64,000 bases of DNA from an uncultured Oscillospiraceae bacterium (GTDB taxonomy: Bacteria; Bacillota; Clostridia; Oscillospirales; Ruminococcaceae), in the NCBI GenBank assembly GCA_934448295.1, contig CAKSEY010000004.1, positions 71,003-135,002 of the forward strand, in the 5' to 3' direction. Positions 57,031 to 62,435 of this stretch are shown one piece after another. Every line of letters begins with the position of its first letter. The first letter of the stretch is position 1. The translations under genes and the position numbers were made by a program. The notes under the pieces were generated by a model that saw only the letters and a program-made list of their open reading frames with translations, did not search any database and had not been told where the DNA came from.

Positions 57031-57059
57031 ATTATAGCACATCTGCGGCGTAACGTCAA
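57031..57059 (-). promoter_or_regulatory. Sigma-A promoter for the choloylglycine hydrolase gene
   Basis: TTGACG-17 nt-TATAAT; the -35 overlaps the anti-sigma stop codon. Confidence 0.55.
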
Positions 57060-59836
57060 TACGGGTAATAGAATCTGTCCAGCCTCCAGCCGTCTGCTTC
57101 CTTGACAGCGTTGATCGTGTAGGCGTCGGTCTTTCCGGTGGAGCCGCCGTGCACGTCGTCGTTATAGGAAACAGTGTAGGTTATCTCCGCCTGGGTTCCC
57201 TCCGGGTTCTCCCATGTGACCTCCGGAATGACCTCGTATATTTCAGGGTCAGTGCCGCGCCCGCCCATCATGCTGTACATCCTGCCGTTGTATTCGATAA
57301 CGCTGCGGCCTGTCACATACCGGAGCGCTTCCTCGGCAACATCATGGGTATAGACCTGCCCGAAAGCGGCAAGCAGACCATCGCGCGTGCGCCAGTCCTT
57401 GTTCCTGATTTCGCAAACCCACTGGGTTTTGCCGTTTACTTCAGTTTCAAAGCCCCATCCCATCCAGTCGGGGTCGTTCACCACAAAATCAAACCACAGC
57501 CTGCGCGCCTGGCTGTCAAGGCTAAGGAGTGCGCTTTCAATGTTGTCTGACGAATTGTTATAAACAACGGTTTTGCCGTCTTTATTCGTGATGAATCCGT
57601 CGTCGGTGAGGGTAAACTCGCTGTCGGCATAGGTTTCCACCCTGTTCCATGCATGGCGGTCGGTGACGAGCCATATCGTGCCGTCCGAGGGGTTGTGCTT
57701 TGTTATCAGTATATATTTTCCCCTGAAATATATCTCTGGGTCGGCGTCCGTATAGTCAATGAGCAGGGTATTCATGCATGAATCCTGAACATACTCATAA
57801 ATCATCGCTTCATTATCATTAAATCTTGATATCACGAACAGCGAGCCGCCGTTATCCATGACGCTGATATGCTCTGAGTTGGCAATGAATTCATACAGGT
57901 CAAGCTGCTGATTCCACCAGTACACATCATCGCACTGCCCCTCCGTGGTGGAATACCTGCGGACGATATACAGCTCCGCTCCGTCAGAGTCCTGCACCAG
58001 ACGATATTCAAGCTCTATATCCGATCCGGTAAGTTCTTCCGGCTCTGCGCCGGTTCTCCAGTCGCCCAACGGATAGAAACCGTAATTTTTCAGCGGCGAC
58101 CAGAAATTTTCAATATCGTTGATATCTCCGCTCTGGGGAGTGAGCGTATACGTCCACTTTCCGCCGCTCTCTGAGAACTCCGCGATAAAGGAGCGTTTGA
58201 TCACGCCCTCGTATGTGCCGCCGGGCTCAAGGGATTTCCACGGAGTTTCCGCGTCATACAGGTCAACGTATATCACCGGGTGTTCAGGGTCTGTGATGTC
58301 GAGCTTGTTGCTTTCGCAGTGGTTTTCCAAATCGCCGAATGTATCGACGCTTACCGGAACGCGCTTCCAGTGCATTCCTGCGAAATCGGCTTCCGCGTTT
58401 TCAAACAGTTCATAAACTGCTTCTGAGAGCGCTGGGTCGTCAGCTTCCGCAAGGAATTTCATTATTCCAAGGCGCGATATCGCGGTCTGACCAAGCGCAT
58501 CCTGTTCACTTCCGTTGCCGTTCCAGTAATGATATCTGTATTCAGCAAAGGAGCGACAGTCGTCCTCGGAATAGTCGTATACAAACATTCTCTCCGGGTC
58601 GTTTTTCATGACCACCCACAGGCTGTTGTAATCCGATTTGCTCTCGCCGCGCAGCATGAAGAACGCGGTATTGTCCGCATTTGCCGCAAACCCGCCGCAG
58701 GTCATTCCTCCGGGAGACAGGTCGAACACAGTGTCATATCTGTACTGCAAATACTCCGAGCCTGTGACTTTCCTTTCATCGGCGCTGTACTGTGACCACG
58801 AGCCTACGAACCAGGTTTCGAATAGCTTCATAGCTTCTTTGTCGGTTCTGAAATCCAGCTCCGACATATCGAACGTACCCTGAATCGGCTGCTTTGTTTT
58901 CTGGGCGGTCTGCGCCTTTTCAACAAGGTACTCCGCAAGCGCCTGCGTGTCGTAAAAGCCGTAGTATTTCGCGGGGTTTACATTCGTGGTGGTGGGGTAT
59001 TCCACGGCGTCTCCGCCGGAATTGTTCTCTATCGGATAGTTCGCTATCGGAAGCCCGCCGAGCACGCTGCTTCTCACCGCCGCATAGTCCTTTCCGTCAA
59101 CGGTTATGATGTCGGAAAGCGCGAACTCCGCCGAAAGCCGGTACTCCCCGTCGGTGCAGTACAGCGCCGCCAGAATACGGTCGCCGATGGAATAGACCGG
59201 GCAGCCCACGGACTGATTCGACTCCGTTCCGCGAACCACGAAATGAATGCTTCTGCCCTGCTGCTCAAGCCCGGTGAGGTTCATGAAACACTCGTCCACC
59301 GTGACCTCATAGACTGAGAAGCTGTCGTCAATAGCGCCAAGGCAGTTTGTCACCGTGAATTCCGCAACGAGCTGGGTCCTGTAAATATTGCCGTTCTGGC
59401 TGTCAAGCTCCGCCCTGACGGCATAGTCCGTGTTCAGCGTTACTTCACCGCAGTTTATGTCCCTGTTCTCATACCGCGGGAGGTCGTCAACATTCAGGAT
59501 ATCGCCCGCATCGGCTTCGGAGGTCTGCGAACCGCTCTCGGCGGGCTGCGTCTGCTGTACGGGGATAAGTCCGCCCTTGAATGCCGCCGTAACTCCCACC
59601 GCAATGACTGCCGCTGCTGCCGCTGTGCTGATAAGCGCAGTCCTGAGCGGCTTTTTCTTCTTGGGCACCGGGCGGTACTCATGGTCGAAGTTCATGAACG
59701 CATCTGCATACATTCCGGCGGAACCGTCATGAGCGCCTGTTTTCACAGAATCCACAAAGCGCTTTTCAAGCTCGGACAGCCTTTCTTCGGAGAGCGACAT
59801 CCTGTCGTATGCCGTTCTGAGTTCGTTTTCAGTCAT
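57056..59836 (-). CDS. Membrane-anchored anti-sigma factor with an ~830-aa extracytoplasmic domain of unknown fold
   Basis: 4-nt overlap (ATGA) with the upstream ECF sigma gene. ~60-aa cytoplasmic N-terminus, a KKKK stop-transfer, one TM (ALISTAAAAAVIAVGVTAAF), then a large Trp/Tyr/Asp-rich secreted region with no recognisable domain. Confidence 0.6.
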   Translation of the reverse strand: MTENELRTAYDRMSLSEERLSELEKRFVDSVKTGAHDGSAGMYADAFMNFDHEYRPVPKKKKPLRTALISTAAAAAVIAVGVTAAFKGGLIPVQQTQPAESGSQTSEADAGDILNVDDLPRYENRDINCGEVTLNTDYAVRAELDSQNGNIYRTQLVAEFTVTNCLGAIDDSFSVYEVTVDECFMNLTGLEQQGRSIHFVVRGTESNQSVGCPVYSIGDRILAALYCTDGEYRLSAEFALSDIITVDGKDYAAVRSSVLGGLPIANYPIENNSGGDAVEYPTTTNVNPAKYYGFYDTQALAEYLVEKAQTAQKTKQPIQGTFDMSELDFRTDKEAMKLFETWFVGSWSQYSADERKVTGSEYLQYRYDTVFDLSPGGMTCGGFAANADNTAFFMLRGESKSDYNSLWVVMKNDPERMFVYDYSEDDCRSFAEYRYHYWNGNGSEQDALGQTAISRLGIMKFLAEADDPALSEAVYELFENAEADFAGMHWKRVPVSVDTFGDLENHCESNKLDITDPEHPVIYVDLYDAETPWKSLEPGGTYEGVIKRSFIAEFSESGGKWTYTLTPQSGDINDIENFWSPLKNYGFYPLGDWRTGAEPEELTGSDIELEYRLVQDSDGAELYIVRRYSTTEGQCDDVYWWNQQLDLYEFIANSEHISVMDNGGSLFVISRFNDNEAMIYEYVQDSCMNTLLIDYTDADPEIYFRGKYILITKHNPSDGTIWLVTDRHAWNRVETYADSEFTLTDDGFITNKDGKTVVYNNSSDNIESALLSLDSQARRLWFDFVVNDPDWMGWGFETEVNGKTQWVCEIRNKDWRTRDGLLAAFGQVYTHDVAEEALRYVTGRSVIEYNGRMYSMMGGRGTDPEIYEVIPEVTWENPEGTQAEITYTVSYNDDVHGGSTGKTDAYTINAVKEADGWRLDRFYYPY

Positions 59837-60330
59837 TTCGATCCCTCCTCCAGAATTATTTTCAGCAGCTTCCTGCCCTTTGCCAGCCTTTTATAGACCG
59901 TGTTTTCAGTGATATCAAGCGCGTACGCTATCTCGGCGGCTGGCATATCCTCGTAATAAAACAGGTACACCACCGTCTTTATCATCTCCGGCAGACTCAG
60001 TACCATATCCAGCAGCTCGTTTTCGCGCTTCTGGGGCGCCGCTACCTCCGCCGCCTGGTCAAGCGGAACGCTGCGCTTTACCCGCGCTGATTTCACAACG
60101 TTGAGCGCCCTGTGCTCCGCCATCTGGATAAGCCAGTACTTCATGTGGGTCTCATCGTTGAACCCGCTGTGCGCCGCTGCCGCCGTGAAGCACTCCATCA
60201 GTATATCCTCGGCCTCCTCCGGGATTTTTACGATCCCGAGGGCGATCCTGTAAACCATGTTGGCGTACTGCCTGAAAACTGCGGCCGCGTTCTCCTGCGT
60301 TATCTGGAACACCGAGACCTCCCCTTTCAT
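59833..60330 (-). CDS. ECF-type RNA polymerase sigma-70 factor
   Basis: Region 2 (VYRIALGIVKIPEEAEDILMECF) and region 4 HTH (DMPAAEIAYALDITENTVYKRLAKGRKLL). Confidence 0.85.
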   Translation of the reverse strand: MKGEVSVFQITQENAAAVFRQYANMVYRIALGIVKIPEEAEDILMECFTAAAAHSGFNDETHMKYWLIQMAEHRALNVVKSARVKRSVPLDQAAEVAAPQKRENELLDMVLSLPEMIKTVVYLFYYEDMPAAEIAYALDITENTVYKRLAKGRKLLKIILEEGSK

Positions 60331-60433: not shown

Positions 60434-60793
60434 TTATATGACGCTGTCCCTGTATCTGGTCAGCGCTTCCGTGGTCATAATGTGATTCTGCTCCACCGCG
60501 GCGAACAGCTCGTCAGCCCCGTCGGCGGCGCCTGACCTCAGCAGCTCAGTCAGGTCGGAGCTGCACTCGTACAGCCTGTCGAAACCGAGATTCACGCTCA
60601 CGCCTTTCAGCGTATGCGCAGCGCGGAACGCGTCCTCTGTTCTTCCGTCCGCAAGCGCCGATTTCAGCTCGGCAAAGCTCGGGTCATTCAGGAACTTCAC
60701 CGCGACCCTTGCGATTATCGCCTCGTTCCCGAGCCTGCGGAGAACCGCGTCAAAATCTGAGCCTGTCAGCTCGTAACACTCCCTTATAGTCAT
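60434..60793 (-). CDS. Stand-alone HPt (histidine phosphotransfer) domain protein
   Basis: HPt signature AHTLKGVSVNLGF with the phospho-accepting His. Confidence 0.75.
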   Translation of the reverse strand: MTIRECYELTGSDFDAVLRRLGNEAIIARVAVKFLNDPSFAELKSALADGRTEDAFRAAHTLKGVSVNLGFDRLYECSSDLTELLRSGAADGADELFAAVEQNHIMTTEALTRYRDSVI

Positions 60794-60817: not shown

Positions 60818-61962
60818 TTACTGAGCGCAAAGCTCCCGCAGCTCATACTGTATATCGGTCAGGCACTCCAGCAGAACCGGGTTGAACTGCCCGCACTCGC
60901 CGCTTAGTATCATTTGTATCGCGGTTTCGTGCGAAAACGCTTTTTTATAGACCCTGACGCTTACCAGCGCGTCGTAAACATCCACAATGGAGACTATCTG
61001 CGCGGAAATCGGTATCTCGTCGCCCTTCAGTCCGTCCGGATAACCCCCGCCGTCCCATCTCTCGTGGTGCCAGCGGCATATCTCGCGGTTGAGTTCGGAA
61101 TCGTCAACAATAAGCACATTCAGCCGTCCGGAATTCTCGGAAACAGGGTGGGTATCCTCCGTCACGACTGTATTCTTGCGGTTCTTGGCAAGGTACATAT
61201 TCTTGTCGGCGCGGGTTATCGCGGAGGCAAGCGGCTCCTTTACAGCCATGACCCCGCCCATGCTGACGGAAAGATGAAGCCCCGGGAATCCCGGGATCTC
61301 CGACTTGTATATAACGCGCCGCATGAAGCGGAGCTGCTGTGAAAACCTTTCCTCGGTCATTCCCGGCATGACCAGCAGGAACTCGTCGCCGCCGTACCGC
61401 ACCAGAATATCCGTTGCGCGGATACATCTCCTGATTATCTCCACGGTCGTCCTGAGCGCAGCGTCGTCCGCGTCATGACCGCAGGTATCGTTGTACATCT
61501 TGAAATCGTCAAGGTCGATCATCACCACCCCGTCGGAAACTGCGGAGTTTTTCAGGCGATCCTCAAAATAGCGGCGGTCAGCGCGTCAATGTATATCTCG
61601 GTGTTGTTCCGTGCGAGCTGCGCCGCAAGCTCCTCGCGCCCGTTCAGCGAAAAAGTGGAATCTCCGGAAAGCTCCTTCTGCATCAGAATGACCGAGGGGC
61701 TGCCGTCTGTCTCAACATACACTGCGACTATCTGATATATCTGCGCGCCGATGAATTCCAGCCGGGATATCTCCTTCTTTCCGCTGAGCGCGTCAGAGAC
61801 GATCCTGTCTGTAACGGACTTGTCAATCAACCCGGCGCTGCCGTTTTCGCAGGGCTTGCCTATGTCGTCCCCGGTTATCAGTCTTACGTCAGGAAAAACG
61901 CGCCTGAATATGTTCATTTCCTCCTTAGCCTGTTCCATGGTTATCGCCACCTGCTGATCCAT
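60818..61962 (-). pseudogene. Decayed c-di-GMP signalling gene: sensor region, frameshifted GGDEF, REC fragment and HD-GYP C-terminal half
   Basis: ORF 61552..61962 ends in ...EIYIDALTAAILRIA* (start of the GGDEF DxLTGLxNR block). ORF 60818..61528 continues in another frame with DRRYFEDRL...VMIDLDDFKMYND...RYGGDEF. A ~13-aa REC-like start (VLIVDDSELNREI) then joins directly to an HD-GYP C-terminal half (HHERWDGGGYPDGL) that lacks the HD motif. Confidence 0.55.
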
Positions 61963-62146
61963 ATATCACAGCTCCTTACCTGCAATAAAGCACCCTTGTA
62001 CCTTTATGCCAGTGAATAATGCGGATCAATATCCGTTTCATCTCTCGAACAAATATATCCCATTTTATGATAATAGCGGAAATCCCCCGATAAAACCAAA
62101 GTCGGGCATGAGCCCGGCAGAACAGCGCTATTGCGTCTATCGTTGC

Positions 62147-62273
62147 TATTTATTATATCATATCCGCAAGGATATGATATAATTGTCCGAAACGCACGGA
62201 GCAAATCTTTGATTTGCGTATATGCGAGGACTTTTAATCTATAATAAATGCTTTGCATTTATTATATCATATC
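62147..62273. repeat. Two copies of the 17-mer ATTTATTATATCATATC, each forming a palindromic operator-like site
   Basis: Site 1: tatatcatatcc-gcaa-ggatatgatata (12-bp perfect inverted repeat). Site 2: catatca-tttc-tgatatg. Also gcaaatc-ttt-gatttgc nearby. The core TATATCATATC also occurs at 17590-17600. Confidence 0.35.
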
Positions 62274-62435
62274 ATTTCTGATATGTCAAAAGGTAAATCG
62301 CAAACGAATTCACATAGCAGCCACCTTTTGTTGCACTTTCACAGATTTCTTCCTCCATATGTAAAAGATGATGTAAACACCGCACAATTTTCCGGGTGGA
62401 ATTAAATCGAACCGTGCCCGGGTAATACTCCGTAT

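Follow-up and report, generated by a model that had tools for sequence, protein, structure and literature searches.

The 64,000-nucleotide stretch from an uncultured Oscillospiraceae bacterium analyzed here (contig CAKSEY010000004.1 of assembly GCA_934448295.1, positions 71,003 to 135,002; hereafter the window) carries on its minus strand, at 61962..60818, the pieces of a gene of cyclic di-GMP (c-di-GMP) signalling whose GGDEF domain is split over two reading frames and whose HD-GYP domain has lost its first half. The locus raises the question of whether a gene was broken here and in what order, or whether the pieces are an assembly artefact or still serve the cell in another form. Judged by its sequence, the gene is by descent a GGDEF-REC-HD-GYP protein (REC, receiver domain) of gut Clostridia. 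The results given below indicate that the window copy is very probably a pseudogene formed in two steps, an in-frame loss of 729 nt and a frameshifting loss of 13 nt. These lesions are not of the same age: the 729-nt deletion is common to all related haplotypes, and the frameshift is a polymorphism within the population.

Gene layout and the two deletions

Three-frame translation, Pfam searches and alignment to related sequences located the following elements (ORF, open reading frame).

61962..60818, minus strand: gene remnant as a whole, from the three-frame translation of 61964..60818
61552..61962, minus strand: ORF1, 136 aa, tentatively PAS-like N-terminal domain and first GGDEF residues (...YIDALT)
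60818..61577, minus strand: second reading frame, RRYFEDRL... to the stop, covering the remainder of GGDEF, the first 13 REC residues and the C-terminal piece of HD-GYP
61379..61393, minus strand: GGDEF active-site motif (RYGGDEF), intact
61420..61409, minus strand: RxxD I-site (RATD), present
61463..61480, minus strand: GHDADD where the family has GHDAGD (window-specific G170D)
61079..61117, minus strand: receiver vestige VLIVDDSELNREI, first beta-strand and acidic pair only, ending at the 729-nt deletion junction
60821..61078, minus strand: HD-GYP C-terminal remnant (CRWHHERWDGGGYP...DVYDALVSVRVYKK...CAQ), Pfam HD_5, HD dyad gone
61579/61578, ambiguous to 61575, minus strand: junction of the 13-nt deletion, from alignment with contigs L001 and L002-L004
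61078..61081, break between 61079 and 61078, minus strand: junction of the 729-nt deletion, ...GAGATA/TGCCGC..., NREI/CRWHH

Alignment to orthologues showed that the remnant derives from a protein of about 630 aa with a PAS-like N-terminal domain (an assignment discussed below), GGDEF, REC and HD-GYP. ORF1 ends as '...EIYIDALTAAILRIA' (also written '...NNTEIYIDALTAAILRIA'); after YIDALT it runs through seven out-of-frame codons (AAILRIA) into a TGA stop. The second frame overlaps it by 35 nt (61586..61552), reads 'RADRRYFEDRLKNSAVSDGVVMIDLDDFK...RYGGDEF...VLIVDDSELNREICRWHHERWDGGGYPDGL...DALVSVRVYKK...CAQ*' (in an alternative excerpt, 'RRYFEDRLKNSAVSDGVVMIDLDDFKMYNDTCGHDADDAAL...RYGGDEF...NVLIVDDSELNREICRWHHERWDGGGYPDGLKGDEIPISAQIVSIVDVYDALVSVRVYKK...CAQ*') and ends at 60818. 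Its mechanical ORF begins at a GTG (61528..60818, 236 aa), and the database-called product begins at the ATG at 61522 and has 234 aa, over which the database protein P0019 is 100% identical to the window product.

The second frame matched GGDEF (PF00990) with E=1.9e-27 over profile positions 12-158 of 161, and conceptual repair by inserting four residues at the frame break raised the score from 96 to 115 bits and extended the match to positions 2-158. A complete GGDEF domain including its DxLTGxxNRR start is found in no single frame, IDALT lying in frame 1 and GAYN being deleted, and the GHxxGD substrate-binding segment is lacking as well, since the window reads GHDADD. The match to HD_5 (PF13487; E=7.4e-16) covers profile positions 100-160 of 170 only. 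The HHExxDGxGYP motif is kept as WHHERWDGGGYP at 61078..61037, its middle G being R in the orthologues, but no HD dyad and no N-terminal metal-ligand helices remain, the ALHDIGK of the orthologues falling inside 243 deleted codons. Response_reg (PF00072) gave no Pfam match in the window gene, which contains neither the full (beta-alpha)5 fold nor the phospho-acceptor Asp. The domain family match at E<1e-15, together with orthologues at 66-96% identity, rules out a chance resemblance. All of these results bear out the first-pass annotation, which had described a GGDEF N-terminal block split over two frames and about 13 REC-start residues joined to a C-terminal HD-GYP half without the HD motif.

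The frame break was resolved by DNA alignment with GCA_963589795.1 (L001, encoding protein P0001), a genome of the same or a sister species whose flanking genes are about 96-99% identical to those of the window and which carries the internal deletion in an uninterrupted frame of 385 codons. Where L001 reads GCGCTG-ACCGGCGCCTACA-ACCGCCGC, the window reads GCGCTG-ACCGCCGC, so that 13 nt (gene positions 385-397) are lost. They comprise the codons for GAYN in the DALTGAYNRRYF motif and one further base, and their loss puts the rest of the gene out of frame. The earlier estimate of a deletion or frameshift of about 10 nt at 61575-61585 was thus right as to position and too small as to size. The lost segment lies between ACCG repeats, 7/8 identical when extended, and the junction is ambiguous due to the retained ACCG copy at 61578..61575.

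Alignment to intact orthologues, the check that the first-pass annotation had proposed, placed the end points of the second lesion at 61079/61078. Relative to three intact proteins, exactly 243 codons (729 nt) are missing in frame, and these encoded REC and the N-terminal 100 or so HD-GYP profile positions including the HD dyad. The intact orthologues read ...VLIVDDS[D/E]LNR[E/D]I-LSSML..., continue through REC, a linker and the first half of HD-GYP, and then read ...AH[D/Q]I-CRWHHERW, whereas the window reads ...VLIVDDSELNREI-CRWHHERW. In the DNA, the ancestral left end is AACCGCGAGATA followed by CTG, the ancestral right end is CACGACATA followed by TGC in contig L006 and CACCAGATA followed by TGC in L007, and the window junction is AACCGCGAGATA followed by TGCCGC. 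A microhomology of 3-5 nt, ATA (AGATA when compared with L007), is therefore present at both ancestral end points. Short direct repeats at both junctions (ACCG and ATA/AGATA) are expected for illegitimate recombination or slippage, and together with the orthologue alignment they substantiate the earlier suggestion of gene decay or an illegitimate-recombination scar.

The 729-nt deletion was present in 16/16 related contigs fetched, including haplotypes about 3% divergent, as well as in those members of the 90% cluster that reach the junction (NREICRW or NHEICRW), and it defines the only allele form found in the species-level population. The gene sequence of the window was recovered identically from other samples in L002 (MEGAHIT), L003 (SPAdes) and L004 (Logan), and the same 13-nt gap was seen on different haplotypes in L098-L101, which makes seven other fetched contigs and at least three haplotypes. 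These data bear directly on the explanation that the lesions are artefacts, namely a frameshift from sequencing error and a mis-assembled or chimeric internal join. In favour of artefacts, the window comes from one assembled sequence, and repeats are sometimes collapsed in metagenome assemblies. However, both lesions recur in contigs from different samples, the 13-nt gap under three assembler types; a 13-nt loss in non-homopolymer sequence is untypical of read error; and the region has no repeats that could mislead an assembler, the microhomology amounting to 3-5 nt only. Since identical lesions in independent assemblies of other samples exclude an assembly or sequencing error, this explanation was rejected and is considered very improbable.

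Intact orthologues and the Hpt partner

When the conceptually joined sequence was searched against 5.8 billion proteins, many proteins of 625-660 aa with GGDEF, Response_reg and HD_5 were found, the nearest intact orthologues (P0002, P0003, P0005 and P0008; 625-633 aa) being 61-68% identical; no intact allele above 68% identity was found among these 5.8 billion proteins. More distant members bear the NCBI name 'diguanylate cyclase [uncultured Ruminococcus sp.]'. The intact proteins of gut Clostridia share with the window the N-terminal domain and the downstream gene for a phosphotransfer (Hpt) protein, their GGDEF domains are 73-77% identical to that of the window, and their HD-GYP C-termini are 88-90% identical to it over a remnant core of 72 residues, a value equal to the similarity among those orthologues themselves. 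In contrast to them, the window gene is 243 codons short and carries the 13-nt frameshift.

The intact proteins contain both ALHDIGK (the HD dyad) and HHERWDGRGYP, and the HD-GYP domain of an intact orthologue aligned to PmGH (PDB 4mcw; E=1.5e-35, residues 173-350) and to PA4781 (PDB 4r8z; E=1.7e-31). Of the domain that aligns to 4mcw in the orthologue, the window retains nothing ahead of the HHERWDG motif. It therefore shares the HHExxDGxGYP motif with PA4781, RpfG of Xanthomonas and PmGH, but unlike them it has lost the part with the HD dyad, and also the REC domain that REC-HD-GYP phosphodiesterases keep. Going by the PmGH structure, the lost part would also hold the upstream His/Glu metal ligands. 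Phosphodiesterase activity would not be expected from the remnant that is left.

The gene that follows the remnant is intact:

60434..60793, minus strand: Hpt phosphotransfer gene, 119 aa, AHTLKG histidine motif, Pfam PF01627

Its product matched PF01627 with E=6.4e-11 (42.8 bits versus a cutoff of 24.6), the conserved His of HxxKG is present, and the ratio of nonsynonymous to synonymous substitution rates (dN/dS) relative to L001 was 0.06, which denotes strong constraint. An Hpt gene stands directly after the intact gene in L005, L006, L007 and L008. In L005 the order is gene, Hpt and then an ECF-type sigma factor downstream, and in L006 it is gene, Hpt, sigma factor, 912-aa protein, CBAH-family gene and 135-aa ORF; the gene order of the window and of L001 matches the L006-type neighbourhood, a 926-aa protein being the window's counterpart of the 912-aa protein. 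The shared Hpt, sigma factor (L005 and L006) and 912/926-aa and CBAH neighbours (L006) indicate that the intact genes are positional orthologues of the window gene. The first-pass annotation had called the neighbour an orphan HPt gene; the adjacency holds, yet this is no random orphan, since Hpt regularly follows the intact gene as its conserved partner and became an orphan here when REC was lost. Within the window, a tblastn search with P0002 for a second GGDEF, HD-GYP or REC gene matched this locus alone, and queries derived from L007 for histidine kinase or response regulator genes gave nothing at E<=1e-4. REC was the only plausible acceptor for the adjacent Hpt.

A scan of genome contigs gave 80 intact relatives under many genus labels. 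The full-length relatives L020-L077, of 45-59% identity, are labelled Collinsella, Blautia, Faecalibacterium, Succinivibrio, Oxalobacter and others, and many of them are metagenome-assembled genomes from one Hadza gut study. Their diversity of genus labels could reflect horizontal transfer or bin contamination.

Alleles, selection and rival explanations

Lesions other than the 13-nt deletion were found in further strains, at the following loci.

L009:3001-3843: 315-nt in-frame deletion, codons 46-150
L012:3001-3681: 431-nt out-of-frame deletion, nt 48-478
L015:2096-3013: +1 A insertion at nt 226

The 315-nt deletion is shared by L009-L011 and leaves a 280-aa product in which GSAGL is joined to VMIDLDD, and the 431-nt deletion is shared by L012-L014. 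All three deletion alleles (13 nt, 315 nt and 431 nt) overlap gene positions 385-397. By rough counts of the contigs read, about 20 had the 13-nt deletion, about five the 315-nt deletion, one the insertion and two an open frame, and about 11 encoded the 226-aa product by which the 431-nt deletion is recognised in L012-L014. Some cluster members have the point changes GGGEF, GDP and G232W in disrupted alleles. In a related species (L016 and L017, sigma factor 92% identical) the orthologue was independently degraded (L016:550-1950 and L017:530-1930) by frameshifting deletions of 2 nt and 59 nt and by a deletion of about 680 nt from HD-GYP into Hpt, so that HD-GYP and most of Hpt are gone and REC is kept. 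In operational terms, the window copy is a pseudogene, its frame being disrupted with respect to the orthologues and the disruption being reproducible in independent data.

The nonsynonymous (N) and synonymous (S) differences were compared with a neutral expectation of 73% nonsynonymous, which was derived from the local transition:transversion ratio of 1.67.

Window versus L001, whole gene: 13N:20S, P=5e-5
Window versus L001, codons 123-385: 4N:12S, P=9e-5
Window versus L001, HD-GYP remnant alone: 1N:5S, P=0.007
Five haplotypes, codons 161-385: 10N:14S, P=0.001

Among the five haplotypes, the HD-GYP remnant showed 3N:7S. Between window and L001, dN/dS was 0.185 for the decayed gene, 0.06-0.09 for Hpt, the sigma factor, the CBAH gene and a methyltransferase, 0.22 for the 926-aa protein and 0.87 for the 135-aa ORF. 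Since the internal deletion is present in every haplotype and the differences are biased towards synonymous changes, these data suggest that the 385-aa deletion product was kept under purifying selection for most of the haplotype divergence and before the recent knock-outs. The 88-90% identity of the 72-residue remnant core to the intact orthologues, no lower than among those orthologues, accords with this. The internally deleted gene would thus not have been dead on arrival, and the intermediate was probably functional. As to the window lineage, 10/11 polarisable nonsynonymous differences are window-derived, versus 9 window-derived and 16 L001-derived in the flanking genes (Fisher P=0.003), and the window has G170D in GHDAGD and A331V in the ADVYDAL motif (60988..60965) at residues invariant in 43 homologues, the GAC codon of G170D being confined to the window haplotype. 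This excess and the two replacements fit relaxed constraint in the frameshifted lineage, a fit that is suggestive.

Four substitutions in six codons at 60965..60997 (codons 327-332; ATA GTC ... GTG GAT versus ATC GTT ... GCG GAC) occur in the window haplotype alone, and their clustering points to a small import by recombination or to a multi-nucleotide event more than to point mutations that arose independently.

Several observations weigh against a decay in two steps as just described. Polymorphism among the haplotypes with the 13-nt deletion is still 11N:20S (P=1.4e-5), which implies little neutral decay since the frameshift and a variation mostly older than the lesion. Upstream of the lesion L098 is L001-like, so that the 13-nt deletion sits on mosaic or diverged backgrounds, was moved by recombination or is recurrent, and the branch polarisation is less clean. 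Moreover, synonymous sites polarised with outgroups of about 65% amino-acid identity are unreliable, and selection on the 385-aa product can be deduced only if the 729-nt deletion is older than the haplotype divergence rather than spread by recombination. A downstream ORF still under selection would give the same substitution pattern, and the absence of an active cyclase from the window copy should be read as most likely.

One rival explanation is that the split gene still works, though in a new way, its C-terminal ORF of about 226-234 codons being translated by re-initiation as a c-di-GMP-binding receptor or adaptor. Degenerate GGDEF proteins act as c-di-GMP receptors or adaptors elsewhere. 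The deletions of 13, 315 and 431 nt hit the same GGDEF start (nt 385-397) and spare the distal ORF, in which RATD, GGDEF and the HD-GYP helices are retained; promoter and ribosome-binding site are intact; L098 has a TTG start that shares bases with the stop of ORF1 (TTGA), a layout typical of translational coupling; and the 11N:20S polymorphism of the frameshifted haplotypes remains biased towards synonymous changes. The same bias is equally explained, however, by young lesions recombining onto old haplotypes. The window haplotype carries G170D and A331V at positions invariant in the 43 relatives, other disrupted alleles have GGGEF, GDP and G232W, no convincing Shine-Dalgarno sequence precedes the GTG/ATG at 61528/61522, and L016/L017 broke the same gene in an unrelated pattern with loss of HD-GYP and most of Hpt. 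We therefore regard a new receptor function as quite unlikely. Restoration of one polypeptide by programmed +1 ribosomal frameshifting, for which a one-base change between the frames within their 35-nt overlap (61586..61552) would suffice, is hardly credible and was rejected by reasoning. The trans-frame fusion would still be without GAYN of the near-invariant TGxxNRR motif, and the overlap arose by a deletion absent from the sister genome and is therefore not a conserved recoding site. Furthermore, reading the 35-nt overlap revealed no slippery or shift-prone motif, and the lesions of other strains could not be restored by frameshifting.

A further alternative concerns the first lesion, in that the 729-nt deletion may have made a working protein, a REC-less and phosphodiesterase-dead diguanylate cyclase or c-di-GMP receptor whose HD-GYP helices are selected, in keeping with the 1N:5S and 3N:7S of the remnant. 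We consider it unlikely; if true, the recurrent N-terminal lesions of most strains would be adaptive switches that silence or repurpose the 385-aa protein, and the locus would show, as a natural experiment among gut commensals, how the deletion of domains rewires c-di-GMP signalling.

The preferred explanation, a pseudogene formed in two steps, can be formulated as follows. The ancestor would have been a c-di-GMP turnover protein of about 630 aa with a GGDEF cyclase, REC and an HD-GYP phosphodiesterase, co-encoded with Hpt. From domain logic and conserved adjacency, Hpt presumably passed phosphate to REC, and the ancestor would then have combined Hpt-to-REC phosphorelay input with opposing cyclase and phosphodiesterase activities. 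The observed 729-nt loss, putatively mediated by ATA/AGATA, joined REC residue 13 to the C-terminal 85 or so residues of HD-GYP; the resulting 385-aa product, with a complete GGDEF and without REC control or phosphodiesterase chemistry, could have made but not degraded c-di-GMP and would have had no phospho-regulation left. The observed 13-nt loss in the window lineage, a probable slippage between ACCG repeats, broke the DxLTGxxNRR start and left a 136-aa N-terminal fragment and a GGDEF fragment minus its start. This second step would have abolished cyclase activity, because the 136-aa fragment has no catalytic domain and a product started from GTG 61528 or ATG 61522 would be missing the initial helix of the domain and a portion of strand 1. 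We speculate that an unregulated cyclase may have been costly and may hence have been knocked out repeatedly.

Leader, flanking genes and meaning for c-di-GMP signalling

The upstream region of the gene contains the following signals.

62261..62289, minus strand: sigma-70-type promoter TTGACA-17-TGnTATAAT, 12/12 consensus matches
62092..62120, minus strand: terminator-like leader hairpin CTGCCGGGC-tcat-GCCCGAC followed by a T-rich run
61977..61960, minus strand: ribosome-binding site AAGGAG and ATG of the decayed gene

The promoter is also conserved in L001, L005 and L016, and with a consensus promoter and a strong ribosome-binding site the decayed gene is probably still transcribed. The hairpin lies about 35 nt 3' of the -10 box, or 140 nt in the window because of a 109-nt insertion there, and its loop alone differs among the window, the sister L001, the intact-orthologue contig L005 and the decayed L016; it may be an attenuator for the gene family. 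Rfam gave nothing at gathering thresholds for the AT-rich leader and the whole window, apart from a spurious lncRNA match (E=0.035), and no tRNAs were found in the window. The 109-nt insertion (62165..62273, minus strand) lies between two copies of GATATG(A/G)TATAATAAAT, duplicates the -10 box and holds a perfect 11-bp palindrome, ATAATAAATGC-aaa-GCATTTATTAT (62265..62241). The window, L002, L009 and L012 carry this insertion; L001 and L015 do not, and neither do the outgroups L005 and L016. Downstream, at 57056..60312 (minus strand), the ECF-type sigma factor gene overlaps the start of the gene for the 926-aa protein by 4 nt. For the latter protein no Pfam match is on record. It contains a single hydrophobic segment, around residue 70, and is therefore probably an anti-sigma factor or a surface protein; no other long flanking gene has a dN/dS as high as its 0.22.

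The N-terminal 120 or so residues matched no Pfam family. The ORF1 domain aligned to the N-termini of the intact 625-633-aa orthologues, and its AlphaFold2 (AF2) model had a mean predicted local distance difference test (pLDDT) score of 74, with a core near 90 and an alpha-beta-alpha-beta3 topology. Foldseek searches against PDB gave weak PAS/Cache/CHASE4-like matches only (best E=5e-3, TM-scores 0.3-0.6), so that the domain can be called PAS-like tentatively. This uncharacterised sensor domain of about 120 aa (61600..61962) is kept in all relatives of 625-660 aa. In the AlphaFold model of P0001, the 385-aa product, the GGDEF domain is confident (pLDDT about 90), junction residues 276-301 are disordered (pLDDT <50), the three remnant HD-GYP helices score 74-86, and the arrangement of the domains is without confidence (predicted TM-score 0.45).

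It is well documented that c-di-GMP genes are truncated, lose domains or become pseudogenes within species, as in the N-terminal deletions of ycgG in E. coli, in YciR, which was truncated after GGDEF and turned into a cyclase, and in the phosphodiesterase and diguanylate cyclase pseudogenes of Yersinia pestis and Shigella (PMC10333796). In those alleles, as in the window gene, deletions precisely take out domains that have a regulatory role or catalyse the opposing reaction; different strains carry distinct lesions of one gene, and pseudogenisation goes along with niche change. The case described here differs in that it concerns an uncultured population of gut Clostridia and a GGDEF-REC-HD-GYP architecture, and comes with no phenotype. 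The window gene adds one more example to a known phenomenon; its decay is real but ordinary, and it should be annotated as a pseudogene, not as two small 'GGDEF' and 'hypothetical' genes.

Taken together, the locus is of modest value as a well-resolved example of the erosion of a second-messenger network, in which one microhomology deletion strips the receiver and the opposing enzyme, the survivor persists and independent knock-outs segregate, while the sister species destroys the locus differently and the partner Hpt stays constrained. As such, it could guide the study of a possible loss of c-di-GMP signalling in host-adapted Clostridia.

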